Assembly (NCBI GenBank): GCA_963666275.2
Contig: CAXXOA010000001.1
Location: 2,144,001-2,208,000 of the forward strand
DNA from: Oceanispirochaeta sp.
GTDB taxonomy: Bacteria > Spirochaetota > Spirochaetia > DSM-2461
Length of the DNA stretch: 64,000 bases
Direction: 5' to 3'
The translations under genes were made by a program, and so were the position numbers. The notes under the pieces were generated by a model, which worked only from the letters and a program-made list of their open reading frames with translations, was not told where the DNA came from and did no database searches. Shown here piece by piece: positions 37,470 to 52,532 of this stretch (position 1 is its first letter; every line of letters starts with the position of its first letter).

Positions 37470-37494
37470 AAAAAAACCGGCTATTCAGCCGGTT
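37470..37494 (-). terminator. Terminator for 37517-38746
   Basis: AACCGGCT/AGCCGGTT stem with an A7 tract on the + strand. Confidence 0.7.
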
Positions 37495-37516
37495 CAGATT
37501 TCAATTACCCCTTTTT

Positions 37517-38746
37517 CTAATCTCTGTATAGGGCATCGACGATTTCTTCCGCTATAATACCAAAGAGCTTTTCTTCCGCTTTTTCCGCTTTTTCATCGGC
37601 AGAAGCAAAACTCAGCAATGGGATATTCTCTTTTTTCTTCACATAGGAATCTCCCGCAAAACTGCTGTTTTTCACATCAAAAAGACGCCCATGAACAGTC
37701 ATATAGATTCCGTTTTTACCCAGTCTTCCCGGACTTCTGGTATCGTAGGTACAGCCCATTATATGATAGAGAATATAGAGATAGTCCAGATCCATCTTTT
37801 CGGCCAGTTCTAAAGCCGTCTTATCAAAGTCTTCGTTGTAATCTTCTGTAAAAGAGACACCGGTAAAAGTTCCCTCTGTTTTAAAGTTGTCTTCATAAAT
37901 CACAGAGGGATAGGGAGTCAGAGTGTTCATAAGTTCCTTCTGGGAATAAATATCCGCCTTATACTCCGACTGGGCATAGGAGTCCATTTTGTTCACAATA
38001 TTCCAGGTGGCATAGTTATCATCCACCGAGAGAAAGGCAATGCGGGCATCAGCCGGTATCCCCTGGAAGTCCTCATCCTCAGGGACAAAATACTGTTTTG
38101 TTTTTCCTTTGAACTTATACCCCGTGGTTGTAATGGGAAAGGGCTCTTCCATCAGTTCCATAGTTTCCATGGAGGCGCTGATGTCCATGGGTTTCACCGA
38201 TTGTCCCTGCCCGTCCATAAGCCAGCCTTCTGTAAGAACTTCTATCCCGTCAATCTGATCATTAATCAGGGCTACCCTGTCATAATTGCCATAAGGATTT
38301 TCTTCATACGTGAGAACCATATCCCCCAGATAGGCAAAATCAGAATTGATAAGATCCAGTTCTGATTCCGTGGCATAGACATTAATGGCGGCAAGTTGAA
38401 TCCCAAGGGCATCTATCGGCTTTTCCTGTATAAAATAGCTGATCCCTTTAACTTCATAACGCCCCCGGGGAAGTGATTTGTAAAAGACTTCGTTTTGCTG
38501 AATTTCAAGGTATTCAATAACTTCCTCTCCATTTTCCAATTCCTTTGATAGAATCAGTGCCGCGGCCCTGTATTTTTCCGGAGGGATATTTTTTTCGGGT
38601 ATATTGATAGAGACTTTACCTGTGATATAGACGATTTCATCCGAAACCTGCTGGCCCGGAGCCAGATTTTCCGTATTCATGGACATACAGCCTGTGAGAT
38701 TAAAAAAGAGAAGAGAGAGAGTTAGAGCATAAACCTTTTTTTTCAT
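37517..38746 (-). CDS. Hypothetical lipoprotein
   Basis: Lipobox LTGC, GGAGG RBS, 409 aa. Confidence 0.75.
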   Translation of the reverse strand: MKKKVYALTLSLLFFNLTGCMSMNTENLAPGQQVSDEIVYITGKVSINIPEKNIPPEKYRAAALILSKELENGEEVIEYLEIQQNEVFYKSLPRGRYEVKGISYFIQEKPIDALGIQLAAINVYATESELDLINSDFAYLGDMVLTYEENPYGNYDRVALINDQIDGIEVLTEGWLMDGQGQSVKPMDISASMETMELMEEPFPITTTGYKFKGKTKQYFVPEDEDFQGIPADARIAFLSVDDNYATWNIVNKMDSYAQSEYKADIYSQKELMNTLTPYPSVIYEDNFKTEGTFTGVSFTEDYNEDFDKTALELAEKMDLDYLYILYHIMGCTYDTRSPGRLGKNGIYMTVHGRLFDVKNSSFAGDSYVKKKENIPLLSFASADEKAEKAEEKLFGIIAEEIVDALYRD

Positions 38747-38895
38747 AAATCCTCCAATAATTGTTTACATTTACGAGGTTTTATAATATACACATGTTTA
38801 TATTATTACAATAATGTGAACAAAATTTTATTTTTTATTTGTGCTGAAAACTAATCTAGCTCGTGGTACAGTTTAAAGGTATGGGGTCAAGGTCA

Positions 38896-39545
38896 CCCCT
38901 GCCCTAAGGCCATCTTATCCGCCTCATAATTGGCATTAATCCGATCCATCCGGTTCATCTGCCCTGGCATCTCTTGCCTGCCGACTTGAGGCGGCGCAAA
39001 ACTCTGCCCACCGGCAGGCTGCCCCATAAAAGGAGACGCCCCGGAAGCAGCCCCCCGGCTCATTCCTCCCGGATGGGACAAAGTATCAGGGTTCCAGACA
39101 GAACCAGCCTGATTCTGCCTGACAGCTTTCACCGCGGCCGGTTTCCCATTGCGAAATGAAACCGTATTTCCTTGCCCTGAGAGTCCCTGAGTGTTTGGCT
39201 TGCGCAATGTCAGCCGGGAGGGAGGGGGAAATCCTTTCCCTGAAAGAGAATTACCTTTTACGGCTGTTGCAGTTTTCTCAACGAGTGTTTTTCCGGAGGG
39301 ACTTGAACTTGTGGAACCGGAAGAAATTGAAGCTTCAGGAAATACCAGATTCTCCACCCGGGATCCTGCGGCCTGAGGTTTCAATGCCTGAACACTATTC
39401 CTGGAAGGATTGATCCTGTACCCCAGGTTGCGGTAACCCTGACCGCCGAAGGAAGCGGTTGCCAAAGGGATCCGTTTGCTAACCCGGGGAATTCTGCTTA
39501 TTGGCGCTGCCTTTGGTGACGTCATACCGGGCAACGCCCTCCATT
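38896..39545 (-). repeat. Copy 4 (longest, about 650 bp) of the 3' region of the tape-measure-position gene; no cassette follows
   Basis: Matches 48276-48910 (plus a short match to about 48993-49002). ORF 38893-39549 reproduces AAPISRIPRVSKRIP...ANYEADKMALGQG and then stops. Confidence 0.92.
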
Positions 39546-39650
39546 CCACCTACTTACTCTATAGCTTTTGCTATCAGCGGTTGCTTCATAAGATCCAATT
39601 TACCTGCAAACCATTAGGGTTGTCTGGTACAATGCCTTTCTTATGATCAA

Positions 39651-39731
39651 CTATTCTTTCAAATCCAGAAATGCTCCGTACATCCAGCCTTTGATATAGC
39701 TTTCTTTCAATACGATTTTAAAGCAATTCAT
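39651..39731 (-). pseudogene. Possible C-terminal remnant of an SH3b-like gene
   Basis: Translates MNCFKIVLKESYIKGWMYGAFLDLKE*, resembling the GW-x-GAFL end of bacterial SH3 domains. Confidence 0.35.
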
Positions 39732-39736
39732 AATTT

Positions 39737-40252
39737 CTAATCGTTATAGACAATCAGTTCTCGATCTGTCACATCAATAATTGATTCACTATCAGCATCA
39801 AAATAGTAAACAAGTCTGTAAGTGTCTATTGTTTCTTTTCTGAAAGGGGTATCCTCTGAAGTTATTACAGAAAGAAAATCAACGTGCATATCTTTAATAA
39901 ATCCTGACTGATTCCTTAAGTATTCATTTTCAAACATGGAAATAATTTTTATATCAACAAGACTCTCAACTCCATTATCAAGATGTCTGGTCATTACTAA
40001 AATAGAGCATTTTTTATAAACCCTACGATACCCTGAAAGGTCACTTTTTACATCTCCAACCGTAAAAGATCCAAAATCATTCAGAAAATTAGTGAAATCA
40101 CCAGAGATTTCCAAGCCGATAAGGGAAGTGAGACCTAATGTTTCTCCACTTTCTATAATCGACTTAAGCTTTAATTCCAAGTCCTCTACTGTCAAACTGA
40201 ACAGAAAATGGGTTATTAATAAGAACAGGGTAATAAAAGATATTTTTTTCAT
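39737..40252 (-). CDS. Exported putative immunity protein (cassette 3)
   Basis: Signal peptide MKKISFITLFLLITHFLFS; directly downstream of the M23 effector; AT-rich. Confidence 0.65.
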   Translation of the reverse strand: MKKISFITLFLLITHFLFSLTVEDLELKLKSIIESGETLGLTSLIGLEISGDFTNFLNDFGSFTVGDVKSDLSGYRRVYKKCSILVMTRHLDNGVESLVDIKIISMFENEYLRNQSGFIKDMHVDFLSVITSEDTPFRKETIDTYRLVYYFDADSESIIDVTDRELIVYND

Positions 40253-40263
40253 TTATACTCCTC

Positions 40264-41472
40264 TTACTGTATATCCGTTGGATCAACGTAATAACGATTA
40301 TACCGATTCAAAACATCTGCATCTGGAGTGTCTACAATAGAGGCATTATCTCTATCCACATAACGCACTTCCATATGAAGATGTGGTCCAGTACATGCCG
40401 TTCCTGTATCTCCCGCATTGGCAAGATGATCCCCAACTTTAACAGGATCTTTATCTTTAACTTTTATTGAACCTTTCTGAAGATGAAATAGATTAAACTC
40501 ACCCCCATCCTCCAAAGTAATTCTTATAAAATAACCCAATTTCTTATTATGTTTAGCCTCTTTCACAACCCCTTCCACAGGCGAATACACAGGCTGCCCA
40601 ATCGTCTTATTCTGATTATTTTCTCTCCAAACCCAATCCTCACCAGCATGGGGATACGAAGCATCATAAGGATCTGTTTCTGCCAAGAACCCACCGCCTT
40701 CAACGCGCTTCCACCCCGGTTCAAACTGCTTGTAATACTCCGCAACCTCATCAGGCAGTTTTATCCGCCTCACTTCATTTTTCGCCAAATTCTCCCTCAA
40801 ATCCCAATACCACCTATCCATATCGTGGATATTATCCGGATTCTTTGTTCTGAATCTCATACCGGCTTCCGTCATCAATCCTATAACATACTCATCCGTC
40901 AATTCAGCCCCATCCATAGCTCTTTCCAGAATTTCTGTCAGACCTCCCTGAATGGCATCTTTTCCGATTGTTTTCGTTCCATTATAGGATGACATAATCT
41001 CTCCATAAGAGTTCCGCAAATGACCGCCTCCATGAAACTCCAAATAGCCATCATCCGTTAAGAACCAATAGTTATTACCGTTTTCATTATTCGGTAGGAT
41101 ATTCTTCTCGTCAACATCAATAGCCAAATTCAGAAGAAAATTAACTTTGGGGTCAATTGTTTGCTGATAATGGGGACCAAGCTCCTCACGCACGATAGCG
41201 TCTGTGGGCTGAGGTATATCAAGCCCCAAAAGAGACATCCATTTTTTGGATAAATTGAGAACAGTCCGCAGTTGATTATAATCATAAGATTCGGATTCAT
41301 GTATAAAAGCGTTCAATCCGGTCCTGTCAAAATTGGAGGCAATAATCTTTATTTCATTTAACACAGTCTCTTTAAACTTTCCGGGCCTATTCCCATTTAG
41401 GACATCATGAAGAGTAGAAACAGCATTCACCATCATTATTTGAATATCTAATCTCGAATATCCGTCAACCAT
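40264..41472 (-). CDS. Putative CIS effector 3: shared N-terminal domain + C-terminal M23 peptidase
   Basis: HAGED (HxxxD), VYSPVEGVV, FHL and GDTG..TGPHLHMEVR (HxH). The N-terminus resembles those of 43948-44751 and 46543-47313. Confidence 0.85.
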   Translation of the reverse strand: MVDGYSRLDIQIMMVNAVSTLHDVLNGNRPGKFKETVLNEIKIIASNFDRTGLNAFIHESESYDYNQLRTVLNLSKKWMSLLGLDIPQPTDAIVREELGPHYQQTIDPKVNFLLNLAIDVDEKNILPNNENGNNYWFLTDDGYLEFHGGGHLRNSYGEIMSSYNGTKTIGKDAIQGGLTEILERAMDGAELTDEYVIGLMTEAGMRFRTKNPDNIHDMDRWYWDLRENLAKNEVRRIKLPDEVAEYYKQFEPGWKRVEGGGFLAETDPYDASYPHAGEDWVWRENNQNKTIGQPVYSPVEGVVKEAKHNKKLGYFIRITLEDGGEFNLFHLQKGSIKVKDKDPVKVGDHLANAGDTGTACTGPHLHMEVRYVDRDNASIVDTPDADVLNRYNRYYVDPTDIQ

Positions 41473-41483
41473 AATCAGTCTCC

Positions 41484-42305
41484 TTATATCCCAAATATCT
41501 TTGTAATATGCTGGGCGACTTGGATCTTCTCATCTTCCGTTCCGTACATCATTTCTTCTTTAAAGTGATCCACAAGTTTCTCTTTGACTTCTACCAAGCA
41601 CTCCCGATACTCTTCCGTAGTCATTTCAATAACCTTACCTGACGGGCTTAAATACCGGTACATTTCAATAGGTTCGGATTCTGTAAAATCTTCCAGATCT
41701 TTATCCGACGCATCCTGTTCTGCAATCAGTTCTTTATTCTTGAAGACAAGATCATCCTGTTTCCATATCTCAAATAAGTCGCTATCTTCCGGATTATGTC
41801 CTGTCTGTCCTTCCAGTTTATAGGCTTCTTTTTCCGCTCCCGACACATCTTCCCGATAGGTCAGCCGCTGTCCTTTTTGGTTCTGCCTGACATGCTCTAC
41901 CTCATGCAGCAGGAGGGCTTCTCCTTCTTCTGTATGAGGGGCATAACTACCTGAGGAAAAATAGATATCCTTTCCGAAAGTCAGAGCATCCGCTCCAGCT
42001 TTGTGGGTGATTTCTTCCGCATAGGGGCCCGTGTGGATTTTCACTTCGGAAAGGTCTTTTCCATAAGTCAATAAAAAGAGGTTGATTAAAGCTGTATCCG
42101 GCGCAAAAATATGGTCATAAACCTCTTTTTTGGCTTCATATGAAGTGATCAGGCCATCTGGTTTAAACTCTTGATCCGGGTTCTGCATTCTGGAGTTATT
42201 GTTACCTGTCTTCTCTATTACATTAAGATAAGCCCCATTTGCCAATTCAAATAGATTCGTGAATTTATTATGCCAGGAAATTGTTACTTCTTGATTACCA
42301 CTCAA
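41484..42305 (-). CDS. DUF4157 (eCIS core domain) protein, paralogue 3
   Basis: DLSEVKIHTG...GADALTFGKDIYF..G.YAP.T.EG..LLLHEVEHVRQ; the TTG start overlaps the stop of the repeat-copy ORF. Confidence 0.88.
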   Translation of the reverse strand: MSGNQEVTISWHNKFTNLFELANGAYLNVIEKTGNNNSRMQNPDQEFKPDGLITSYEAKKEVYDHIFAPDTALINLFLLTYGKDLSEVKIHTGPYAEEITHKAGADALTFGKDIYFSSGSYAPHTEEGEALLLHEVEHVRQNQKGQRLTYREDVSGAEKEAYKLEGQTGHNPEDSDLFEIWKQDDLVFKNKELIAEQDASDKDLEDFTESEPIEMYRYLSPSGKVIEMTTEEYRECLVEVKEKLVDHFKEEMMYGTEDEKIQVAQHITKIFGI

Positions 42306-42380
42306 CTTTCTACCCTCTTGATATCTTCAACAATATTATGAACATCAATAGCAGTATATTTTTTTCTTTGGCTTACACTT

Positions 42381-42750
42381 CCCCCGGCATGCCCCACCGA
42401 ATGACTCTGCGTCTTGGCCAGCATCCTCTGCTCTCCATACTCACCCTGCCCCAAGGCCTGCTTATCCGCCTCATAGTTCGCATTAATCCGGTCCATCCGA
42501 TCCATCTGCCCCGGCATCTCCTGCCTGCCGAACTGAGGCGGCATAAAGCCCTGCCCTCCGGCAGGCTGCCCCATAAAAGGAGACGATCCGGAAGCAGCCC
42601 CCCGGCTCATTCCACCCGGATGGGACAAGGTCTCAGGGTTCCAGACAGAACCAGCCTCATTCTGCCTGACGGCTTTTACCCCAGCCGGTTTCCCATTGCT
42701 AAATGGAATCGTATTCCCTTGTCCTGAGAGTCCGGGAGTGTTTGGCTGTC
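42381..42750 (-). repeat. Copy 3 of the tape-measure 3' region (inside ORF 42302-42835, which has a variant C-terminal tail)
   Basis: Matches about 48214-48582; reading frame intact; ends ...SVGHAGGSVSQRKKYTAIDVHNIVEDIKRVES. Confidence 0.92.
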
Positions 42751-42883
42751 CCACTACCAGCTTGGGCGAAGGGGTAAAACTTTTTCGGGAAAGTGAACCT
42801 CTTTTTTTTGGCAAAATCCCCGCAAGATGTTTCAAGTATGGGGGTAATCCTCCTGTTAACCGATCATTTGAATATTTTTAATT

Positions 42884-42985
42884 GCGGGGTCGGGCTATAC
42901 GTTTCAATTCGCTTAATCGGTACGCTTTTCGGACTACCTCCGGGCCGCCCTGCGTACCTGGCTCATTTTCACTACTATCCCTTTT
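42884..42985. other. GC-rich structured element at a cassette junction
   Basis: Nested stems GGTACGC (42919-25)/GCGTACC (42952-58) and CGGA/TCCG, with flanks GGGCTATA...TATCCC, inside AT-rich DNA. Confidence 0.4.
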
Positions 42986-43013
42986 TAGTGTTAATTTTTT
43001 ATTTACCTGAAAA

Positions 43014-43178
43014 TTACTTCTGACTAAGAAAAGCTCTGATACTGGATTCAAAATCAGGTAATTCCCATTTTATCGCCATGTCTAAAGGAGTTTCTCCATT
43101 ATTATTTTCTTTCTTAGAGAAAAGATTATCCTCTACTAGATATTGGAGTATTTCATTGTTTTCATAGCCTACGGCAAA
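43014..43178 (-). pseudogene. Start-less C-terminal remnant of an ankyrin-repeat gene
   Basis: Translates FAVGYENNEILQYLVEDNLFSKKENNNGETPLDMAIKWELPDFESSIRAFLSQK*; overlaps the last codons of 43169-43951 in another frame. Confidence 0.6.
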
Positions 43179-43951
43179 CCTGCAACATATACAACATATT
43201 TTGCAGGATAGTAATTACCAGTAGACCCAACTCTAAAAAATTCGGTCCGATCATTATTGATTTTGTAAGCAGAGACAGCAACTGAATACAGTCCTTCAGC
43301 TATTATCGATTCTGTAATCATCAATTGATCACTTTCAACATTTCCCAGAATATCGTCATAATCAGTAAAACCCACAAATAGAGAATCTGGTAAACTAATG
43401 CGATTATCCTTTATCCCAATAATTGAAAAACTCTTATTGTTGTCCACTGATTTAAAAAACAAACTATAAAAGTCTACATTAGGAATATTATTAGTCCATA
43501 CAATTTCCAAGTTAGCGGAATCATTACGTTCCGTAGGATAATCAGTAAGCTCTATCTCATTATATATAAAAATAGTATTTGTCTCTATTTTATGTTTAGA
43601 AATAATAAAACTATCAAAACTTCCATATATAATTTTGGGTGAAGTAAGAGTATTTTCTGGATGTGAATATTGCCAGATTGGAAAATCTGGAGAAACATCA
43701 ATAGTTAAATCTATTATATCATTTTCATCTATTTTGACAGAAAAGCTATTGTTTTTATCCGTCTTTACATCGCACCCAGAGAATCCTTGTGAATTCTTTA
43801 CTCTGTATGAAATATGCAATGGGAAATCTTCAACATTTCCATAAGTTTCTACAGTCCCTTTGACAGTTGTGAAATTGCAACTTAGTAATATTAGAGGGAA
43901 TAATACAAATAAATATTTTTTCATATTAAAATCAAACTTGTCATTCTTCAT
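43169..43951 (-). CDS. Lipoprotein, putative immunity protein (cassette 2)
   Basis: MKKYLFVLFPLILLSC lipobox; ATGA overlap with effector 2; AT-rich. Confidence 0.7.
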   Translation of the reverse strand: MKNDKFDFNMKKYLFVLFPLILLSCNFTTVKGTVETYGNVEDFPLHISYRVKNSQGFSGCDVKTDKNNSFSVKIDENDIIDLTIDVSPDFPIWQYSHPENTLTSPKIIYGSFDSFIISKHKIETNTIFIYNEIELTDYPTERNDSANLEIVWTNNIPNVDFYSLFFKSVDNNKSFSIIGIKDNRISLPDSLFVGFTDYDDILGNVESDQLMITESIIAEGLYSVAVSAYKINNDRTEFFRVGSTGNYYPAKYVVYVAGLP

Positions 43952-44751
43952 TTTATAGACGGCGCAGCCCCAGAGATTGCGTCAACTCCTTGATATGGAA
44001 AGATAATTTTTTTCAGTTCATCTTTTGATAATATTTCAGTCAAAGCATCCGCCATTAAATCATGATCATTAAATAATAATCTTTTTGCAATTTCGCTATC
44101 TGTAATCCTAGTCCATTCAAAATCTGGTTGATTCAAAGCGGCACCTTCTCCATCCCCTGGTAAATATTGTTCAAGAGTCCAACCTGTTATAGCGGTTTTG
44201 TTTCTATTAGAATATACTGTAATTCTTAACTGCCCCCATCCACCTTCTATTGCATCGGTAATACTGTGAGCTTTTGTACCAGCTCCAGAGTCATCAATAC
44301 CAACAGGTAAGCATCCTTCAATTACCCGTGCAATGACTGGATATTCTGATTCTATTACTTCAGAAGGGAACTGGAGCCTTGTATTATTATTTGAAATATT
44401 TTGGTGCCTAACATATGGATTCCCATATGAATCATTAAAATATTGTATTAACCCTTTTGTTGGTAAATCGCGCATAGAAACATCGCAAGGATTTGATAAC
44501 TTTAAGTAATTTGATTGAGCTGGATTAATACCAATAAGATGTAACCAATACACACAAACTTTCTGAATCTCATTTAATTCATGATTTCCATATTTAGAGA
44601 ATTCTTCGAAGAAATCATTAAAATTGAAATTCTTGAGCTTACCTTTTAACTCTTTATTATTCGGGTTCTCTTCTTGCCCTCCAAAAATTTCCAAAATGGA
44701 TCTATATGTTGATTTGGCAAGGTCTTTAATCTCATTTTCTTGATTCCCCAT
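43948..44751 (-). CDS. Putative CIS effector 2: shared N-terminal domain + unrecognised C-terminal domain
   Basis: N-terminal F..E..KYG..EL..I..VC..WL..I.I.P pattern shared with effectors 1 and 3; located between a DUF4157 gene and a lipoprotein gene. Confidence 0.72.
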   Translation of the reverse strand: MGNQENEIKDLAKSTYRSILEIFGGQEENPNNKELKGKLKNFNFNDFFEEFSKYGNHELNEIQKVCVYWLHLIGINPAQSNYLKLSNPCDVSMRDLPTKGLIQYFNDSYGNPYVRHQNISNNNTRLQFPSEVIESEYPVIARVIEGCLPVGIDDSGAGTKAHSITDAIEGGWGQLRITVYSNRNKTAITGWTLEQYLPGDGEGAALNQPDFEWTRITDSEIAKRLLFNDHDLMADALTEILSKDELKKIIFPYQGVDAISGAAPSIK

Positions 44752-44802
44752 TATATCTCCTTGTAAATATCGTAGACAGTCTGTTGGTGGGATGGATAAA
44801 AC

Positions 44803-45606
44803 CTAGCTTTTAAAGATCTTCATCATTTTATTTATGACTTCAGTTTTCTCTTCATCAGAACTGTACATCATAGATGTCTGAAATTGGTCTTCAAGTTTTT
44901 CCTTTATGATCTTTAATGAGCTTTTATAGTCTTTTTCTGACAATTCATGGACTCTTCCGGATTGACTTACATAGCGATATGTCAAAGGTTCATTGTGAGA
45001 AGAGAAATCTGCCAAGTCTTTATCAATAATATCCAGTCCATTCGTCAAATCCTGATCTTTAAAGATAAGATCCTTCTGTTTTTGGAGATCAAACAGTTCT
45101 CTATTCTCAGTATCGATATCTGATAAACCTTCCTGACTATTGGCCTGTTTTTCTGCCTTATCGATATCTTCTTTATATATGTGACGATCCTGTCTACGAT
45201 GCTGCTCAACATGTTCAGCTTCATGCATCAGCAATTGTCTGCCGTATTCAGTATCCGGAGAAAAGCTTCCGGATGAAAAATATATATTCTCACCCATTGT
45301 CAATGCATCTGCACCAGCCTTGTGAGTGATCTCCTCGGCAAAAGGACCTGTATGGATTTTCACATGAGACAGATCACTTCCATAACGGATGAGAATCTCA
45401 TTTATCAAAGAGCTATCAAGCGCATGTATTCGGTCTAATCGCTCTTTTTTCATTTCATAGAGACTTATCAAACCTTCAGTTCTTAGCTCATTATCCGGAT
45501 TCTGCATTCTAGAGTTTTTGGTTGTTGCATCGCTAGATGGTAACAGATAATGCATGGTTACCAGTTCAAGAAGATTTATGAATTTTCCATAAGATTCTTG
45601 TCCCAT
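44803..45606 (-). CDS. DUF4157 (eCIS core domain) protein, paralogue 2
   Basis: DLSHVKIHTGPFAEEITHKAGADALTMGENIYF...LLMHEAEHVEQ. Confidence 0.88.
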   Translation of the reverse strand: MGQESYGKFINLLELVTMHYLLPSSDATTKNSRMQNPDNELRTEGLISLYEMKKERLDRIHALDSSLINEILIRYGSDLSHVKIHTGPFAEEITHKAGADALTMGENIYFSSGSFSPDTEYGRQLLMHEAEHVEQHRRQDRHIYKEDIDKAEKQANSQEGLSDIDTENRELFDLQKQKDLIFKDQDLTNGLDIIDKDLADFSSHNEPLTYRYVSQSGRVHELSEKDYKSSLKIIKEKLEDQFQTSMMYSSDEEKTEVINKMMKIFKS

Positions 45607-45689
45607 ATTATGACTCCCTGTTTAAATCATCCAAGACATCATAAATAAATACACTTTTAGTATTTAGTCTTCTTGATCCAGTTCCCTCA

Positions 45690-45973
45690 GCATGCCCCAC
45701 CGAATGACTCTGCGTCTTCGCCAGCATCCTCTGCTCCCCTTGCCCCAGTGCCATCTTATCCGCCTCATAATTCGCATTAATCCGGTCTATCCGGTTCATC
45801 TGCCCCGGTATCTCCTGCCTGTCGACCTGAGGCGGCACAAAACCCTGCCCAGCGGCAGGCTGCCCCATAAAAGGAGACGCCCCTGAACCAGCCCCCCGGC
45901 TCATTCCGCCCGGATGGGACAAAGTATTAGGATTCCAGACAGAACCAGCCTGATTCTGCCTGACAGCTTTTAC
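45690..45973 (-). repeat. Copy 2 of the tape-measure 3' region (covers most of ORF 45608-45922, which has a variant tail)
   Basis: Matches about 48220-48512 with an in-frame 9-nt deletion (EYG); ends ...SVGHAEGTGSRRLNTKSVFIYDVLDDLNRES. Confidence 0.92.
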
Positions 45974-46016
45974 TGAGAATCATAAAATCCATATTAGTGG
46001 AGAATTCGAAGTGTTT

Positions 46017-46553
46017 TTATTTTAGCTCTGATAGTTGATCATGAAGAGAATGCCATCTATTATCTGCCAAGTCATGCTTATCAACCCATTGTAAAGTTTT
46101 TTGAATTGAAGCAATCTTCCAAAATGGATCTGAATAATCAAGTATTAATAAATCTCCGGTAGATTTGGATAAATAATATTTTCTAGAAAAGATTAATGAT
46201 TCTTTAGAAAAGATATAATCTTCGACATTTCCTAATGTCTCAAAATTTACAGTAACAACACAGATTTCCTCTTCTATTGGTTCCATTAAATTAATATTCA
46301 TTTTCATAGTTTCAATATTGGTTATTTTAAAATGACTAGTTACGACATGAATACTGTTTTTATCTCCTGGTGGAATAGCTATATCTGGGTGATAATAATC
46401 AACAACTGTATAATAATAATCAATGCCGGCTTCAAGCCTTTTATATATATGATTAGACACAATTTTTTCAGCCTGAAATTCCTCACCACTATAAGAGAAG
46501 AAATTAGTAAAAACTAAGAAAATCAAACCAAATAGTTTACTCTTAAAATACAT
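46017..46553 (-). CDS. Exported putative immunity protein (cassette 1)
   Basis: Signal peptide MYFKSKLFGLIFLVFTNFFSYS; overlaps the effector 1 stop. Confidence 0.65.
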   Translation of the reverse strand: MYFKSKLFGLIFLVFTNFFSYSGEEFQAEKIVSNHIYKRLEAGIDYYYTVVDYYHPDIAIPPGDKNSIHVVTSHFKITNIETMKMNINLMEPIEEEICVVTVNFETLGNVEDYIFSKESLIFSRKYYLSKSTGDLLILDYSDPFWKIASIQKTLQWVDKHDLADNRWHSLHDQLSELK

Positions 46554-47313
46554 TGCTTCTCCTTCTATAATATTCTATTGAAACTTCCGTATAATCTGTT
46601 CTGTTTTTATAATATGATTCTAAGTAATCAGATGTAAATCTTACCCCATTAGGATTATCATCAGAATGTAGTAATGCTCTACGGCCGGACTCTCCTGTTA
46701 TTATAGCTGCATGACCTTGTGTTTTTCCTGTTTTTGGATTTGTAGCACGCCAGACTTTTATATCTCCTGGTTGAGGCTCATCAACTTTCTCTAAATCAGG
46801 ATTATTTCCTATTTCGCCAGTTCTGTAGATTGAAGTATCATTTGCATATGCTATAAACTCAGAACAGTCAACTTTTATTGGTTTTTCAGGGACAATCATG
46901 GAACCATTATATTCCCCATCATAACCGGTTCCATAAGGAGTTCCTAATAATTTTTCACCCCTTTTTATTGGATTAATATTATCTATATCTTCAACAGGAA
47001 TATCAAAGACTTTTTTTTGCCCAGACTCTTCTCTTAAATATTGCAACAACTCTTTATGCATATTTACAGGATCAATTCTTAATATAGCCAACCATTTTTC
47101 ACAAACTGTATAAATACTCTTCAATTCATCTTTTCCATAGGAACTTGACTCTCTGATAAAATTATTCACATTGAAATGATTGATAAATCGTCCCAATTCA
47201 TTTCTGCTTTCTTGTGGAAAACTCCCGGGCCTTTTTCCTTCAAAAACATCTTTAATCGTGAAATAAGTAAATATTGCCAATGACCGGGTATCAAACTTTG
47301 TCAGTTCACTCAT
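46543..47313 (-). CDS. Putative CIS effector 1: shared N-terminal domain + NlpC/P60 (CHAP-like) cysteine hydrolase
   Basis: LGTPY, VDCSEF, PQPGDI, GHAAII and LLHS match the papain-like NlpC/P60 Cys-His pattern. Confidence 0.8.
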   Translation of the reverse strand: MSELTKFDTRSLAIFTYFTIKDVFEGKRPGSFPQESRNELGRFINHFNVNNFIRESSSYGKDELKSIYTVCEKWLAILRIDPVNMHKELLQYLREESGQKKVFDIPVEDIDNINPIKRGEKLLGTPYGTGYDGEYNGSMIVPEKPIKVDCSEFIAYANDTSIYRTGEIGNNPDLEKVDEPQPGDIKVWRATNPKTGKTQGHAAIITGESGRRALLHSDDNPNGVRFTSDYLESYYKNRTDYTEVSIEYYRRRSNVF

Positions 47314-48143
47314 TACAGGATTCTCCCATCAAATAACTTAACCAGATTATTTATAGTAGCGTTTCGTTGATCCTCACCACTGTATCGTATCTCATCTTCA
47401 AACTTTTCTTTCAGCCTGGAAAGAATCTCTTTCAAACAACTCTGATACTCTTCTTTCGTCAATTCATGAGTACGACCGGATAAACTATTATACCGATATA
47501 TTACAGGATCATTACTGGTCGTATACATTTCAAGATCCTGCTCTACCGCATCAAGTCCATCATTAAGATCCGTATTCTTAAATATCAAATCATTCTGTTT
47601 GAATCGTTCAAAAAGATCTATATCATCGAAATGACTGCCACTCAGACCCTCCTGATTGAGAGCCTCCAGCTCCGATTTTTCAAAATCTTCCCGGAATGTT
47701 AAGTTTTGGCCCTTTCGGAATTGATTTACATGCTCTAATTCATGCAGAAGCAGTTCTTTTCCCTTTTCCGTTTGAGGAGCAAAACTACCTGATGAGAAAT
47801 AGATATCATTCCCCATAGTTAAAGCCTCTGCACCTGTTTTATGTGTAATCTCTTCAGCATAAGGTCCAGTATGAATTTTCACATTTTCCAAGTCTAACCC
47901 ATATAAAAGATAAATGTTATTTATTAAAGAGACATCCAATGCGAAGACACGATCCAACCTATGTTTTTCCTGGACCTTTGCAGTGACCAAATTCTCAGTT
48001 CTTAATTCACGATTAGGATCAGGCATTTTAGGATGAAAACTTAATGCTTGTTCTGAAACACCGATATATGATCCGATAGCAAGTTCTACAGATGTAAGAA
48101 ACAGATTAAGACTGGAAAAAATTACTTCCCGTTGACCTCCCAT
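47313..48143 (-). CDS. DUF4157 (eCIS core domain) protein, paralogue 1
   Basis: DLENVKIHTGPYAEEITHKTGAEALTMGNDIYF...LLLHELEHVNQ; the ATG abuts the TAA of the large upstream gene. Confidence 0.88.
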   Translation of the reverse strand: MGGQREVIFSSLNLFLTSVELAIGSYIGVSEQALSFHPKMPDPNRELRTENLVTAKVQEKHRLDRVFALDVSLINNIYLLYGLDLENVKIHTGPYAEEITHKTGAEALTMGNDIYFSSGSFAPQTEKGKELLLHELEHVNQFRKGQNLTFREDFEKSELEALNQEGLSGSHFDDIDLFERFKQNDLIFKNTDLNDGLDAVEQDLEMYTTSNDPVIYRYNSLSGRTHELTKEEYQSCLKEILSRLKEKFEDEIRYSGEDQRNATINNLVKLFDGRIL

Positions 48144-51100
48144 TTAAAACTCCCTCTGTAAATCCTCAATCACATCATCAATAAAAACAGTTCTATTTGT
48201 TTTTCTGATTTCACCCCCGGCATGCCCCACCGAATGACTCTGCGTCTTCGCCAGCATCCTCTGCTCTCCATACTCCCCCTGCCCCAGTGCCATCTTATCC
48301 GCCTCATAATTCGCATTAATCCGATCCATCCGATCCATCTGCCCCGGCATCTCCTGCCTGCCGAACTGAGGAGGCACAAAGCCCTGCCCACCAGCTGGCT
48401 GTCCCATAAAAGGAGTCGCCCCGGAAGCAGCCCCCCGGCTCATTCCTCCGGGATGGGACAAGGTATCAGGATTCCAGACAGAACCAGCCTGATTCTGCCT
48501 GACAGCTTTTACCGCAGCCGGTTTCCCATTCCTAAATGGAATAATATTCCCCTGTCCAGAGAGCCCGGGAGTGTTTGGCTGTCGCAATGTCAGCCGGGAC
48601 GGAGGTGTAAAATCTGTTGCGGAAACAGAACTACCTTTTACGGCTATTGCAGTTTTCTCTATGGGATTGGTTCCGGAGGGAATTGAACTTGTGGGACCGG
48701 AAGAAACTGAGGCTTCCGGAAATACCAGATTCTCCACCCGGGATCCAATAGCCTGGGATTTCAAAGCCTGAACGTGGTTCCTGGAAGGATTGATCCTATA
48801 CCCCAGGTTTCGATAGCCCTGACCACCGAAAGAAGCGGTTGCCATAGGGATCCGTTTGCTGACCCGGGGGATTCGGCTTATTGGCGCGGCTTTTTGCGGC
48901 GTCATACCGGACAAAAGAGAGGGAGCCGAAACTCCCTGACTTCCAACAGTACGGGTCATGGCCTGTTTTATAGGGCTCCGCATAGCGGAAGGAACGCCCT
49001 CCCACTGGCCGGAAGCTGCAGAAGCAATCAGAGGGATTAACTCCTCTCTCGGGAGAATCAATTCAGGTGTTACACCGCCCTCTTCATAAAAGGTATCTGC
49101 CACAGCCTGTATGACCTCACTCTGTTCAGGAACAAACGTGGTGATCGGAGGAATCACCATATTTGTTCCAGCTTTAATCTGGGACACACCAGAGACTTTT
49201 CCTGAGGCAATCATACTCTGCTGTTTTTCTATTGAGGATATACCGGAAGTACCCAGTTTACTCTCCAGCCGGTTTTTCAACAGATCAAACTCATCCCCGG
49301 TAAAAGCCTGCGACTCCCACTGTTTCACCGCCTCAGCGCTGACAGTTTCACTCAGCCCCGCCTTGCGGTAGACCGCCCTCACTTCTTCCAGCTGAGCCCG
49401 ACTCAAAGGACCGGCCCCCTCTGAGGGAACCGACAGAACAGCCAGAAGATCTCCCGTCAGGGGGAGGACTGTTTCGGGGAGGACAGCCGGCAGGGTCTCT
49501 TCGCTGGTGCCTCTTACAGAACCGCCCTTTTCCAGGACCAGTCCGGTTGAAACGTCCAGAGGTTTGTACAGGCTCTCACGGGGAACCGACTTCACCGGGG
49601 CGGCCATAAGGGCGGCGCTGTCCAGGACTATTCCCAGGGACTCTTCAAAATAGACCTCTTTGGAGGCTATATTCCCTGCATCGGGGCTCTTCCTGTTTAT
49701 GGCATCCACCGAACGGACCAGGTCGCCTACGGTCATCCCTGTACTCATCTGTACCGTCCGGTATTCAGCCAGAGCGGATGACAGCTTTTTGTTAAACCCC
49801 TTCCGGTCCACAGGGGGAATATTCAGTTTTCCGACGGTTTCTTTCAGAGAAGCAGCCTCTCCTTCGGTCAGCTTTGAAGCCGCAGAGGCTTTCTCCAGGT
49901 CTGCTGACTGAAAGAAATCAAATTCCTTTGGAGATCCTGCTTGTCCGAAGGGCTTTTTCCCCTGGCACAACTCTCCCAGAGACACTTTGCCGGTCAGAAC
50001 CGCATCGGACTGCTTCCCTGTTTTCCCCAGACCACTGTTCCAGGCTTCATCCAGAACAGCCGTATCATCCAGTGTCGTATCCTGCAGCAAAGGCAGAACC
50101 GCTGAGATAAAGGGCATCACATGACCCAGTTCTTCACCGGACACTTCTTCACCTTTCCTGTCCAGCCAGGCCTCCGCTTCGGGAGTCAGATCAGAGGCAA
50201 TGGCATCCCGGTCTTCTTTAATAAAAGGATTAAGAGGAAGCTCTATCACCTCCTCTCCCGCACTCAGAATCTCTCCGGCCTGCTTATTAGTTAGGCCGCT
50301 CTCTTTCAGCCGGGCAAAGGCTCCCAGAGTCAGACTGGCCGCTGCGGCCTCTTCCCGTTCACTGCGGTCAGCCTGAACCAAGTCTCGGGTCTCGGTGCTT
50401 CCTTCTTCCAGAATTTTCACACCCTTCCCCAACTTCTCCCGGTACACCTTTTTCACCTCATCCGGTGTTCCCTGGGGAAGGACGACTCCCACAGGGGAGG
50501 TTCCCTTCAGTTCAGCTTCCACCCTCTTCCAGGCGGCATCCGGATCGTTTTTTACAGCCCCGTAGAGCTCTCCCTCCAGGGTGTAGTAGTACTCTTCCTC
50601 TTCCTGTACCAGTAACAGAGCGGTATCAAATATAACCGGGCCGTCCAGGGTAGAGACCATCCGGATCTCCCTGGTTTGACCTTCCGGCTCGGCGGTAATG
50701 CCCCCTTGCCGGCCGCTTGTCTCATCCACCATAACCCAGTCGCCCTCTTTGTTCAGAGCGCCGAACCAGCCCTGTTTCTCCACCCGGTAGTTGGGGTCAT
50801 ACTTTTCCCGGTTCCAGTCAAAACCGCCTTTGTCACTGGTCCGGTCAAACCGGAGCCGGGCTTTTTCTTTGTTATAGGTTTCGCTGACGCTGCCGTCTCC
50901 ATAGAGGTAGATCCGGGATGAACCTGTTTCGGCGGCAGAGTTTTTCTTTATTCTATTCCGGCGCATTCCGGCGGGTTTCAGATCTTCCAGATTCCGGCCC
51001 AGGCTCTCCAGATGTTTTTCTGTTAACACAGTCATAGCCCCGGTGGTTCCGGCAAAACTCCAGAGCATCTGCTGGCTGCTGCGGTTCAAAAGCATATCTT

Positions 51101-51362
51101 TCCGGAAGGCATCGATCCGTTCGGAATCTCTTCTTCCTCCGGGGAAGAACTCATCGGGGTTGAAAAACACAGAGTCCTGTTCTGCCTGGCCGGAAGCCAC
51201 GAGCTGGGACTCTATACTGTGCCGGGCCTCTTCTTTCCGGGCCTCCCCTTCGGGGCCGTCCAGACTCAGACCTTCCTCATAGAGATCAAAGGCCTTCTGA
51301 ATCTCTTCGTCCTTCTTTGTATAAGAGTCCTTTGAAAAATAGCTCAGCAGTTCGTCAATCAT
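48144..51362 (-). CDS. Large protein at the tape-measure position of the CIS locus, with a repeated/swappable C-terminus
   Basis: About 1070 aa, directly after the chaperone/frameshift pair. ATG 51362 follows AAGGGGTG (the ORF is open to 51407). Its low-complexity P/G/S/Q C-terminus is duplicated three times downstream. Confidence 0.65.
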   Translation of the reverse strand: MIDELLSYFSKDSYTKKDEEIQKAFDLYEEGLSLDGPEGEARKEEARHSIESQLVASGQAEQDSVFFNPDEFFPGGRRDSERIDAFRKDMLLNRSSQQMLWSFAGTTGAMTVLTEKHLESLGRNLEDLKPAGMRRNRIKKNSAAETGSSRIYLYGDGSVSETYNKEKARLRFDRTSDKGGFDWNREKYDPNYRVEKQGWFGALNKEGDWVMVDETSGRQGGITAEPEGQTREIRMVSTLDGPVIFDTALLLVQEEEEYYYTLEGELYGAVKNDPDAAWKRVEAELKGTSPVGVVLPQGTPDEVKKVYREKLGKGVKILEEGSTETRDLVQADRSEREEAAAASLTLGAFARLKESGLTNKQAGEILSAGEEVIELPLNPFIKEDRDAIASDLTPEAEAWLDRKGEEVSGEELGHVMPFISAVLPLLQDTTLDDTAVLDEAWNSGLGKTGKQSDAVLTGKVSLGELCQGKKPFGQAGSPKEFDFFQSADLEKASAASKLTEGEAASLKETVGKLNIPPVDRKGFNKKLSSALAEYRTVQMSTGMTVGDLVRSVDAINRKSPDAGNIASKEVYFEESLGIVLDSAALMAAPVKSVPRESLYKPLDVSTGLVLEKGGSVRGTSEETLPAVLPETVLPLTGDLLAVLSVPSEGAGPLSRAQLEEVRAVYRKAGLSETVSAEAVKQWESQAFTGDEFDLLKNRLESKLGTSGISSIEKQQSMIASGKVSGVSQIKAGTNMVIPPITTFVPEQSEVIQAVADTFYEEGGVTPELILPREELIPLIASAASGQWEGVPSAMRSPIKQAMTRTVGSQGVSAPSLLSGMTPQKAAPISRIPRVSKRIPMATASFGGQGYRNLGYRINPSRNHVQALKSQAIGSRVENLVFPEASVSSGPTSSIPSGTNPIEKTAIAVKGSSVSATDFTPPSRLTLRQPNTPGLSGQGNIIPFRNGKPAAVKAVRQNQAGSVWNPDTLSHPGGMSRGAASGATPFMGQPAGGQGFVPPQFGRQEMPGQMDRMDRINANYEADKMALGQGEYGEQRMLAKTQSHSVGHAGGEIRKTNRTVFIDDVIEDLQREF

Positions 51363-51415
51363 ATTTTCACCCCTTTGTTCCCGCTCAAAAACGATCCTCA
51401 CACTCACAAGGATCT

Positions 51416-51622
51416 CTATCTGGTTTGGTCTGCCCGAAGGGCTTCTACATAGTTCCTGGTATCAGAATTGATCCGGTTGTTGATCTTTTCCAGCTCAGCA
51501 AGCCAGCGCCGCCGTTCGTTCCGGCTCATATCCAGGACATCCCGTCGGCTCCAGTGAAAGTAGTAGGCCAGGTATGCCGTCTCCCCGTAAATATCTCCGG
51601 AAAGACGGCTTATACTTCCCCC
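51416..51622 (-). CDS. DUF6760-like tail chaperone extension, probably made by -1 frameshift from the upstream gene
   Basis: ETAYLAYYFHWSRRDVLDMSRNERRRWLAELEKIN motif; no convincing own start; lies in the -1 frame after GGGGGAA. Confidence 0.7.
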   Translation of the reverse strand, partial: GGSISRLSGDIYGETAYLAYYFHWSRRDVLDMSRNERRRWLAELEKINNRINSDTRNYVEALRADQTR

Positions 51623-52341: not shown

Positions 52342-52532
52342 GACAGCTTCTCCAGTTTTTGTTCAACGTATTGATTCATTTTTTCGATAGTTTCCAAATC
52401 CAGAGGTTCAAAGGCAAACTCTCTGTAAATATCATCCAGAATCGCCCGGGCCTGATCAGGATAGGGAAAGTCGATTAATTCAAGGTCACCGGTATTTCGG
52501 TTCACTTTCAGGTATTTTCTGTCGTCACTCAT
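52338..52532 (-). CDS. Small hypothetical protein in CIS operon
   Basis: 64 aa; overlaps both neighbouring genes at start and stop. Confidence 0.6.
   Translation of the reverse strand: MSDDRKYLKVNRNTGDLELIDFPYPDQARAILDDIYREFAFEPLDLETIEKMNQYVEQKLEKLS

Follow-up and report, generated by a model that had tools for sequence, protein, structure and literature searches.

The region described here is probably the effector end of an antibacterial Afp/PVC-like injection system (CIS) that evolves as a polymorphic toxin locus by exchange of modules. It lies in the window, the whole stretch of DNA that was analysed (64,000 nucleotides). The first-pass annotation had proposed a polymorphic toxin system built on a CIS, and this was borne out, with a variable unit made up of the tip of a large gene, a DUF4157 gene, an effector gene and a gene for an exported protein. 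A constant part joined to variable toxin domains was found in the effectors of the window and of a Treponema-type set, orphan pieces retaining the conserved region were found (three fragments in the window; also in L027 and G322, and at the effector level in L025), and exchange of cassettes between strains was found in relatives. Toxins of injection systems appear to be swapped in complete sets of several genes, much like those of better-known bacterial systems, and the locus is of interest because a docking partner for DUF4157 proteins is suggested.

The features of the region are as follows.

51610–52341, minus strand: tail-assembly-chaperone-like protein, 243 aa, two tandem units of ~120 aa (phrog_508, E 7.7e-9)
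51416–51664, minus strand: DUF6760 protein, 82 aa (PF20546, E 1.1e-12)
48144–51407, minus strand: large anchor gene of an unnamed family, 1087 aa from GTG (1072 aa from ATG at 51362)
48214–48880, minus strand: conserved repeated 3′ region of the large gene, ending in the motif RMDRINANYEADK...SHSVGHAGG; GC 0.553
48144–48213, minus strand: variable tip of the large gene, last ~22 codons and stop, marked by a fall in identity; GC 0.286
47313–48143, minus strand: A1, small DUF4157 (eCIS_core) protein, 276 aa (PF13699, E 1.6e-19; HExxHxxQ intact)
46543–47313, minus strand: E1, effector, 256 aa, shared ~85-aa N-domain and probable papain-like (CHAP/NlpC-P60-type) C-domain
46017–46553, minus strand: I1, exported protein, 178 aa, candidate immunity, N-terminal hydrophobic signal sequence in the translation
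45608–45973, minus strand: orphan fragment 2, ~121 codons, own tip, 9-nt in-frame deletion
44803–45606, minus strand: A2, DUF4157 protein, 267 aa (PF13699, E 3.3e-20; 48% aa identity to A1)
43948–44751, minus strand: E2, effector, 267 aa, shared N-domain and a C-domain without recognisable function
43169–43951, minus strand: I2, lipoprotein, 260 aa, candidate immunity, signal peptide and Cys lipobox in the translation
42302–42835, minus strand: orphan fragment 3, own tip, homology from ~42750, stop overlapping the A3 start
41484–42305, minus strand: A3, DUF4157 protein, 273 aa (PF13699, E 1.6e-20)
40264–41472, minus strand: E3, effector, 402 aa, shared N-domain and Peptidase_M23 (PF01551, E 8.3e-15; HxxxD and HxH present)
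39737–40252, minus strand: I3, exported protein, 171 aa, candidate immunity, signal sequence in the translation
38893–39549, minus strand: orphan fragment 4, matching large-protein residues 832–1044 (85% aa)
37474–38746, minus strand: 409-aa lipoprotein (37517–38746), then a terminator-like hairpin (37474–37495)

Of the conserved 3′ region in the 1087-aa large gene, the last 280–650 nt recur three times downstream at 85–86% nucleotide identity, and all four copies that the first-pass annotation had located were recovered, on the minus strand, by repeat search, blastn and MAFFT alignment. Repeat search of the window placed one family at 38896–39195, 42443–42742, 45737–46036 and 48276–48575, and a second family of 63 nt at starts 42381, 45684 and 48214. 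Whole-genome blastn (query 48144–48900; target 5.27 Mb in 3 contigs) returned three extra copies (86% over 619 nt, E 4e-212; 85%, E 1e-156; 85%, E 1e-117) and no further long match, the sole remaining match being of 37 nt (E 3e-4). Alignment of the four copies showed that copy 4 (38896–39545) reaches furthest 5′ and has an early TGA after ALGQG, that copies 3 (about 42302–42750) and 2 (45608–45973) extend to a stop codon, and that copy 2 carries the 9-nt deletion; an open frame is kept in every copy, as had been claimed together with one such in-frame indel. Exact matches of 38–47 nt link the large gene with each orphan fragment. The triplet of DUF4157, effector and exported-protein genes, earlier reported behind copies 2 and 3 and the intact gene, was confirmed at all three places as a gene with a PF13699 match (E 1e-19 to 2e-20), one of effector size and one with a signal peptide or lipobox. 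Copy 4 is the exception, with no such triplet behind it; the fragment is truncated ahead of the SHSVGHAGG motif and the tip, and no cassette follows downstream.

Comparison of the copies revealed a sharp fall in identity (~0.9 to ~0.55) about 24 codons ahead of the large-gene stop. Identity between copies was 0.86–0.93 for the fragments, ~0.55 for the tip, 0.5–0.76 for the DUF4157 genes and near random for the effectors. GC was 0.55–0.60 in the large-gene fragments, 0.286 in the tip and 0.28–0.42 in the cassette genes, the tip sharing the AT-richness of the cassettes; the earlier remark that the cassettes are AT-rich thus holds (28–42% GC in the cassette genes against 54–60% in the large gene and its fragments). 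The dN/dS check suggested for the four-copy alignment gave 0.16–0.35 in all six pairs, with an excess of synonymous change (p 6e-9 to 3e-4), and in the tip dN and dS were both ~0.5. Because their differences are mostly synonymous, the fragments look as though they once formed the 3′ ends of functional alleles and were displaced downstream by incoming modules.

Within the cassettes, the start of A1 abuts the stop of the large gene, and all 16 DUF4157 proteins in the alignment, among them those of the three cassettes, have an intact HExxHxxQ motif. The DUF4157 paralogues are 48–51% identical, against 76–85% for the large-gene fragments. The three effectors have the ~85-aa N-domain in common (28–30% identity) and unrelated C-domains. 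For E1, matches were obtained to CHAP (E 0.0098, below the cut-off) and phrog_329 (E 1.6e-5), and a weak model (pLDDT 41) places a Cys at a helix start followed by a His on a strand; E3 also matches NCBIfam peptidoglycan endopeptidase models. The homologue search with E2 returned only E2 itself, and its atlas matches were uninformative; I1 had no family match in Pfam or NCBIfam. Each effector gene is followed by one for a small exported protein, which may neutralise the effector, and the exported location of these candidate immunity proteins would fit a peptidoglycan-directed E3 and probably E1.

Pfam and NCBIfam matches in the window comprise sheath, gp19 tube, CIS_tube+LysM, GPD, AAA, P2_I and CIS13 genes, and gp25, Baseplate_J and Phage_base_V/PAAR genes lie just outside it. 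The system was assigned to the Afp/PVC-like type (eCIS superfamily) by its sheath, tube, LysM tube initiator, spike, gp25, Baseplate_J, P2_I-like protein, AAA+ ATPase and DUF4157. A DUF4255 cap/terminator was not matched among the scanned ORFs (E up to 0.01), nor a tape-measure family in the CIS cluster, in searches that a divergent version of either could escape. The claim that the large gene encodes the tape measure is accordingly unproven: the large protein had no match in Pfam, PHROGs, NCBIfam or PDB sequences, Foldseek returned nothing at E up to 0.001 (query model pLDDT 51), and none of 34 members of its family scored above a Pfam cut-off. A search of 5.8 billion proteins yielded 8 homologues, and a profile search 251 clusters. 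In the low-confidence model (pLDDT 51) the first ~800 residues are helix-rich, residues 808–1009 are disordered and S/G/P-rich, and the C-terminal helices are conserved. A VgrG (gp27/gp5-like) spike was considered as the identity of the large protein and rejected, Phage_GPD and Phage_base_V being absent from it and found on separate genes of the cluster.

Orphan architecture was also found in metagenome contig L027 (a 661-aa large-gene fragment with a cassette) and in the Treponema-type genome G322 (two large-gene fragments, with DUF4157 and effector genes behind each). With the window counted, 3 of the 9 loci that have 4 kb or more of downstream sequence contain orphan arrays. Comparison of syntenic loci, as had been recommended, revealed cassette exchange in relatives. 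Between the L027 orphan and the primary cassette of another contig, L030, ~99% identity extends over the final ~140 nt of the fragment, the DUF4157 gene and ~1 kb of the effector; the body of the L027 fragment, by contrast, is ~93% identical to L027's own large gene. The toxin C-terminus and immunity gene of L030 are present as an orphan in L025. Effectors of the Treponema type have 420–470 N-terminal residues in common and differ in the C-terminal toxin, and the toxin domains in relatives' effectors include Ntox30 (E 3e-48), TNT, Endonuclea_NS_2, AHH and Peptidase_M15_4. DUF4157 genes group with the cassettes of other genomes over their own neighbours in the Treponema-type set only. Across 11 Treponema-type units (55 pairs), tip identity tracks DUF4157 identity (rho 0.68, permutation p 0.0002), a co-variation that plain linkage could explain, and shows rho −0.04 with the preceding ~95 residues. 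Among 37 family genomes, the 3 other carriers have a single cassette. The earlier proposal of a unit swap through the repeats stands in part: a unit of tip, DUF4157, effector and exported protein has been exchanged in relatives, but active switching was not seen in this genome. Exchange was seen only in relatives, this species being represented by one strain.

Mis-assembly would be in keeping with the short-read contigs (three runs of one sample, probably the source of the genome), which end at the repeat cores, break only inside them and nowhere cover the full array. The copies are, however, mutually 12–15% different with unique flanks, and every fragment-to-neighbour junction is reproduced with 0 differences, which makes an artefact unlikely; with the genome in only 3 contigs and like architecture in L027 and G322, the chance that the repeats arose in this way is very small. 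A single ancestral cassette that was duplicated in tandem at this site and then diverged, without horizontal input, would produce direct repeats in one array with like gene order, as found, but such an origin is very improbable. The non-coding-looking fragments are 85–86% identical in nucleotides whereas the adjacent functional DUF4157 genes are 48–51% identical in amino acids, and the fragments bear a signature of purifying selection in 6 of 6 pairs; moreover, the toxin domains of the effectors are unrelated, as are the exported proteins, cassette GC is unlike that of host genes, and relatives carry identical cassettes at different positions.

The three cassettes could also be co-transcribed with the CIS operon and used together, the fragments being inert scars of arrival and no switching taking place, a reading that is a real possibility if a somewhat doubtful one. 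The downstream cassettes may be expressed without a switch because they are complete (each gene of A2/E2/I2 and A3/E3/I3 being a full ORF with a start of its own), tightly packed and not interrupted by a strong terminator before 37474–37495, the array's only strong terminator-like site on the minus strand, which follows the 409-aa lipoprotein; ‘orphan’ may therefore fit only the large-gene fragments. DUF4157 motifs are intact in all three cassettes, and none of the short-read contigs contained a joint between the large gene and cassette 2 or 3, of the kind for which the first-pass annotation had called. Such joint use leaves unexplained why the tip co-varies with DUF4157 type and not with its own gene body, and why the identity and GC boundary lies inside the large gene and not at its stop; cassettes 2 and 3 would also be without a full-length partner if the tip matters, and no Shine-Dalgarno-like sequence is present at fragment 2. 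For the large gene itself, the chances are about even that it encodes not a tape measure but a protein dedicated to docking or cargo, like the tape-measure-related effector Sle1 of Streptomyces, whose partner is the small DUF4157 protein Sle2. Such a role is consistent with the lack of a tape-measure family or fold match, with best conservation in the first ~560 residues (many invariant aromatic and glycine positions), with the lack of a transmembrane segment, with the order of large protein then small DUF4157 seen in Sle1/Sle2 (10.1101/2025.11.06.686954, available portion), and with L030, where the chaperone-like genes lie elsewhere and do not adjoin the large gene. It is opposed by the large protein being the cluster's only tape-measure-sized cytoplasmic candidate (a 458-aa candidate has a signal peptide), by the phrog_508-like chaperone gene and DUF6760 gene that precede it in G000 and G014, and by the conserved C-terminal helix, which would be expected of a hub-docked tape measure. 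Each half of the 243-aa chaperone-like protein matches a 123-aa protein of L030.

In the preferred reading, that of module exchange at a polymorphic toxin locus, the large gene consists of a conserved body, joined by a disordered linker to a conserved helix motif near the C-terminus, and a variable tip of ~24 residues, and the exchanged module comprises the tip and three translationally coupled genes (DUF4157 zincin-like, effector, exported candidate immunity), the toxin domains being an M23 peptidase, a probable hydrolase of the papain-like type and a third without assigned function. New modules would be brought by horizontal transfer and recombined by way of the large gene's conserved 3′ region, each displacing the prior 3′ end and its module downstream; two older modules that are still complete, and one remnant, would be the result. 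Retained modules may provide immunity and may be re-attachable by recombination across the 38–47-nt identical stretches. The data record past displacement, not a working switch. The tip may dock the cognate DUF4157 protein as effector carrier, in which case the large protein would play the part that in a T6SS falls to the variable VgrG C-terminus, and the large protein may be a tape-measure-like lumen protein. A fuller version, in which the tip and the N-terminal part of DUF4157 form a cognate pair that chooses the loaded effector, the large protein is a lumen-filling dock and the fragments are switchable reserve docks, is rather unlikely; if it were true, the tape measure itself would be the cargo dock, and RecA-type deletion through the 38–47-nt stretches would re-attach a reserve dock, changing weapon and identity in one step.

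By analogy, the logic of the locus matches that of T6SS vgrG–adaptor–effector–immunity modules and of Rhs/CDI orphans, and the large protein appears to resemble T6SS vgrG anchors in its working without being a member of their family. Bondage et al. reportedly found in 2016 that effector specificity is conferred by the VgrG C-terminus. Rhs, CdiA and MafB loci carry arrays of displaced 3′ fragments, in each of which a conserved piece extends to a junction motif and is followed by a variable C-terminus and then by an immunity gene. The displaced fragments here likewise keep a conserved piece up to a conserved junction motif; in Rhs/CdiA/MafB, however, what varies is the toxin domain, on one polypeptide with the conserved part, whereas the large gene here varies over only ~24 residues and the toxin is encoded separately, by the second gene downstream. 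Such orphan toxin–immunity arrays are summarised in the accessible part of PMC5361080. The first-pass annotation had put the architecture forward as not known to be described, but its logic is known, as far as the available sections go, from T6SS vgrG loci (PMC5361080, PMC8546570) and from DUF4157 polymorphic toxins (PMC3482391). According to the same sections, T6SS vgrG loci swap the vgrG 3′ end together with adaptor, effector and immunity genes, and those of V. cholerae and agrobacteria have, like the present locus, a conserved anchor body and a short variable C-terminus with specific adaptor, effector and immunity genes, an incoming anchor 3′ end with its downstream genes displacing the resident module and leaving orphans (PMC5361080, PMC8546570). 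Unlike in those loci, the anchor here is not VgrG (GPD and Phage_base_V/PAAR are separate genes), the adaptor is DUF4157 and not DUF4123, DUF2169 or DUF1795, and whole modules are retained, adaptor and effector included, not immunity genes alone; in contrast to the canonical T6SS, the machine is Afp/PVC-like, with Phage_sheath_1 and a PF00004-type AAA. Within the excerpted literature, PVC-type polymorphic toxins built on DUF4157 go back to Zhang et al. 2012 (PMC3482391), and DUF4157 adjoins eCIS toxins (Geller 2021, PMC8213781; Danov 2024, PMC11297309). As here, DUF4157 marks phage-tail-like cargo in these systems and recombination joins a constant part with variable toxins; DUF4157 is fused or adjacent to toxins and may work in trans from a neighbouring gene (PMC3482391, PMC8213781, PMC11297309, in the sections available). 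Orphan arrays on an upstream large gene and a DUF4157-linked variable tip are not described in those sections, and the word ‘orphan’ does not occur in PMC11297309. Similar in gene order are Sle1/Sle2 of S. lividans and Tme of S. davawensis, where a large protein likewise stands just upstream of a small DUF4157 protein; in the portions at hand (10.1101/2025.11.06.686954; PMC11126660), the Streptomyces DUF4157 partner binds both a baseplate or tube-initiator component and the large protein, whose C-terminal part the authors term ‘reconfigurable’. In Sle1, as described there, an entire functional domain varies and the protein acts as effector in its own right, whereas here effector and immunity are separate genes that follow.

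The window is G000:C1:2144001-2208000, in the genome G000 (5.27 Mb, 3 contigs). The genes treated here are on the minus strand, and ORF listing and repeat finding gave one intact large gene and three partial copies of its 3' region.

48144-51407, minus strand: large gene, 1087 aa counted from a GTG, or 1072 aa, the recorded length, from the ATG at 51362
45608-45973, minus strand: fragment 2 of the large gene
about 42302-42750, minus strand: fragment 3 of the large gene
38896-39545, minus strand: fragment 4 of the large gene

The recurrence of the 3' region at three places, reported in the first-pass annotation, was confirmed by ORF listing, repeat finding, blastn and alignment. In blastn against the whole genome, the fragments matched the large gene at 86%, 85% and 85% identity (E 4e-212 to 1e-117), and no further copy of the 3' region was found, the sole extra match being a negligible 37 nt. 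By alignment, the stops of fragments 3 and 2 abut or overlap the start of the next gene, like that of the intact large gene, the in-frame 9-nt indel claimed for one copy is a deletion in fragment 2, and fragment 4 has the longest 5' reach, yet a TGA ends its frame ahead of the last ~43 codons. The dN/dS check proposed for the four copies was run on their conserved part, giving 0.16-0.35 at a dS of 0.23-0.42 in all 6 pairs, with synonymous changes in excess in 6/6 (p 6e-9 to 3e-4). The DUF4157 proteins encoded next to them, A1-A3, share merely 48-51% protein identity. Untranslated scraps diverging in place would be expected to look otherwise. The fragments fit 3' ends that once belonged to working alleles in separate lineages and later came to lie side by side. 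Exact matches of 38-47 nt persist between the large gene and every fragment, and identity of this length exceeds the usual minimum for homologous recombination.

The coupled triplet that had been described behind the intact gene and two copies is present by family matches and translations: the intact large gene, fragment 2 and fragment 3 are each followed by a DUF4157 gene, an effector-sized gene and a gene for a small exported protein (cassettes 1-3). A1-A3 (267-276 aa; PF13699, DUF4157/eCIS_core, E 1e-19 to 2e-20) have an intact HExxHxxQ signature and account for all 3 DUF4157 matches in the whole genome, and the candidate immunity proteins I1-I3 are small, with a signal peptide or lipobox. 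An N-domain of ~85 residues is common to the effectors E1-E3 (28-30% identity). E3 matched Peptidase_M23 (E 8e-15), with both HxxxD and HxH there. For E1, the CHAP and phrog_329 matches were both sub-threshold, a weak single-sequence model (pLDDT 41) had a Cys-at-helix-start, His-on-strand pattern, and a PDB sequence search returned chance-level rows only. No homologues of E1 or E2 beyond themselves were found by word-based search, and the E2 C-domain matched only unnamed or phage portal-like clusters in the ESM Atlas, which were judged uninformative. Cell-wall-directed effectors with exported neighbours would be expected for an antibacterial system with periplasmic immunity. The 333-nt spacer from I2 to fragment 3 (42836-43168, minus strand) holds an open stretch ending ...NNGETPLDMAIKWELPDFESSIRAFLSQK at its stop, which resembles the C-terminus of an ankyrin-repeat protein and is possibly what is left of a further immunity gene. 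A 409-aa lipoprotein without a recognised family is encoded at 37517-38746, after fragment 4 and ahead of the sole strong terminator; its gene may be an immunity-type leftover or just a flanking gene.

Nucleotide identity (pairwise nucleotide profiles) and GC content across the locus
Fragments: identity 0.86-0.93; GC 0.55-0.60
Tip (last ~24 codons of the large gene): identity ~0.55; GC 0.286
DUF4157 genes: identity 0.5-0.76
Effectors and exported proteins: identity near random
Cassette genes: GC 0.28-0.42
Structural genes: GC ~0.48

The cassettes are thus AT-richer than the structural genes, as had been noted. The identity and GC boundary falls directly after the conserved motif RMDRINANYEADK...SHSVGHAGG, and on the identity step and the parallel GC step the tip (48144-48213) is assigned to the cassette rather than to the rest of the large gene.

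Few close kin encode the large protein. It was present in 3 of the 37 other genomes of its family and in 4 of 401 genomes of the phylum sample (G000 counted), and a search of 5.8 billion proteins returned 8, itself counted. A profile search gave 251 clusters of this family, 113 at E up to 1e-30, and none of the 34 members scanned reached the Pfam cut-off. In the related genomes G001, G002 and G014, the order large gene, DUF4157, different effector and small gene occurs once each, with no large-gene fragments, and one of these effectors carries Peptidase_M15_4. Searching with the C-terminal motif added Treponema-type genome and metagenome loci of identical gene order, with effectors carrying TNT, Endonuclea_NS_2, AHH and Ntox30, which are classic polymorphic-toxin domains. 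Among 9 loci with at least 4 kb downstream, fragments were found in 3 (G000, the metagenome contig L027 and the Treponema-type genome G322) and were absent at G001, G002, G014, L025, L028 and L030, with L034 a possible tenth locus and the remaining contigs left out as too short. In L027, a 661-aa 3' fragment is followed by DUF4157, effector and small gene; in G322 (99% complete, 2 contigs), two large-gene fragments are each followed by DUF4157 and effector-sized genes. In G322, the large gene has a DDE-transposase-like fragment (sub-threshold match, L036:38-535) immediately before it, and because of this fragment that copy may have moved away from its structural genes. The metagenome contigs L034 and L032 carry identical DUF4157 genes at opposite contig ends; joined, they read large gene, DUF4157, TNT effector, ..., 428-aa tail-bearing ORF, Endonuclea_NS_2 effector, ..., DUF4157, large gene, which suggests a tandem or otherwise complex arrangement.

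Movement of tip, DUF4157 gene and toxin as a unit, predicted for the window by the first-pass annotation, was seen in relatives. Between the orphan in L027 and the primary cassette in L030, another Treponema-type contig, identity is ~99% across a stretch made up of the final ~140 nt of the fragment, the DUF4157 gene and ~1 kb of effector sequence. Further upstream, the L027 fragment has 60-90% identity to L030 and ~93% to L027's own gene. We read this mosaic as direct evidence of cassette exchange in relatives. At L025, the downstream orphan consists of the L030 toxin C-terminus and immunity gene, preceded by 22 residues retained from the resident effector, and in the orphan pairs of this locus no more than 22-87 residues remain of the constant part of the effector. 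A second orphan level, of toxin C-terminus and immunity pairs, one with an AHH nuclease, was observed at L025:14289-17351. Across 11 Treponema-type units (55 pairs), tip identity tracked DUF4157 identity (Spearman 0.68, label-permutation p 0.0002), a correlation in which kin are not independent and adjacency alone yields some linkage; for the tip against the preceding ~95 residues, Spearman was -0.04 (p 0.57). Since the tip is decoupled from equally adjacent upstream sequence, these values argue for a breakpoint hot spot at the conserved motif.

Within the window's own species, three public runs of one sample, probably the source, contain the region, and it was absent from one further run under the same species label. 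The suggested check for reads joining the large gene to cassette 2 or 3 gave no such contig in these 3 runs, nor any recombinant or repeat-bridging contig. Two listed joints were rejected as recombinants (24-nt sides, low depth, fit to DUF4157 paralogy), and a loose-end sequence beside cassette 3, with 0 matches in the G000 genome, is probably from another organism in the sample.

In the proposed mechanism, incoming modules would enter by recombination in the large gene's conserved 3' part and displace the old 3' end along with its module, a model given in the available text for Vibrio T6SS clusters and Rhs loci (PMC5361080), with the displacement pattern likewise described for agrobacterial vgrG loci (PMC8546570). 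The tip would dock its cognate DUF4157 protein, which would hold the effector via the N-domain; a complex prediction that paired A1 with the C-terminal 88 residues of the large protein scored 0.23 against a mark of 0.32, speaking neither for nor against binding. Retained modules would supply immunity against kin and may re-attach through recombination. Alternatively, all cassettes could simply be co-expressed, a reading that arises because no strong terminator stands ahead of 37474-37495, and that is compatible with a displacement history too.

The designation of the large gene as a tape-measure gene was not supported: size and cytoplasmic type fit, but no match to a known family or fold was found. 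The large protein is the only cytoplasmic candidate of tape-measure size in the cluster and has no transmembrane segment. Nothing known matched it in Pfam, PHROGs, NCBIfam, PDB sequence or Foldseek searches, with 0 matches for its profile in the PDB sequence search, nothing at E up to 0.001 for its model in Foldseek against the PDB, and no usable match in the ESM Atlas. The model (AlphaFold2, 8 sequences) is of low confidence (mean pLDDT 51), with the first ~800 residues helix-rich with some strands, an S/G/P-rich disordered stretch at 808-1009, a helix across the conserved motif and a terminal helix in the tip. A chaperone-like gene precedes the large gene in the window and G014, not in L030. 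A tape-measure-like role is conceivable, if rather doubtful. A 458-aa gene that follows the first tube gene was also considered as tape measure and rejected, since it has a signal peptide and no PDB match.

The cassette region forms the 3' end of a gene cluster for a contractile injection system, and this cluster continues into L006, the G000 stretch just beyond the window.

Window: P2_I-like protein, CIS13-family protein, FHA protein, VWA protein
Window: sheath, gp19 tube, CIS_tube+LysM, GPD spike
Window: radical-SAM protein, AAA ATPase, DUF2997, pentapeptide protein
Window: phrog_508 chaperone-like protein, DUF6760
L006: gp25, Baseplate_J, second sheath/tube pair
L006:8697-11927 (G000:C1:2215697-2218927): LuxR-type regulator and two Phage_base_V genes, one with a PAAR-like region

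Transcription of the LuxR-type regulator and Phage_base_V genes diverges from that of the cluster's gp25 end. The two sheath/tube pairs (511+166 aa and 407+142 aa; window 57657-59622 and L006:2784-4459) belong to two subclusters with exported and FHA/VWA proteins in between. DUF2997, a radical-SAM/4Fe-4S protein and DUF1257 (53618-53827, 55414-55968, 63511-63912) are interleaved with the structural genes and the AAA ATPase, and the radical-SAM then AAA pair is kept in the Treponema-type loci L027, L028 and L030. The 243-aa phrog_508-like protein (51610-52341, in the stretch 51610-53621) is a tandem of two ~120-aa units, which in L030:14416-16301 are separate genes flanking a pentapeptide-repeat protein beside Phage_base_V/PAAR genes; these units may be accessory to the spike instead of acting as tape-measure chaperones. 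No paper on DUF6760 was found.

The architecture had been proposed as undescribed. For the array and the spirochaete system, the literature searches agree: they returned no paper on orphan arrays tied to a large gene that precedes DUF4157 genes, and none on an antibacterial Afp/PVC-like system in spirochaetes. The general principles were known. PVC-type polymorphic toxins (PMC3482391) and the adjacency of DUF4157 to toxins (PMC8213781, PMC11297309) are already described in the text available for these sources. The spirochaete Afp/PVC-like system is apparently antibacterial, with effectors that hydrolyse the cell wall and exported proteins that are candidates for immunity. DUF4157 is the most widespread cargo marker of phage-tail-like injection systems, and the accessible parts of three sources call its role elusive (PMC8213781, PMC11297309, 10.64898/2026.05.27.728243); our analysis points to the variable tip of an unnamed large-protein family (251 clusters) as its candidate partner. 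The window locus and its relatives offer natural cognate and non-cognate tip/DUF4157 pairs, and a swappable dock-adaptor-cargo unit would serve the engineering of injection particles for protein delivery. Module exchange is an established principle for T6SS vgrG modules, and these loci show that the displacement known from T6SS vgrG and Rhs/CDI also operates in Afp/PVC-like systems. The closest described analogue of the large protein with its DUF4157 protein, likened by description in the portion of the source available, is the pair Sle1, a large tape-measure-related protein, and Sle2, a small DUF4157 protein (10.1101/2025.11.06.686954).
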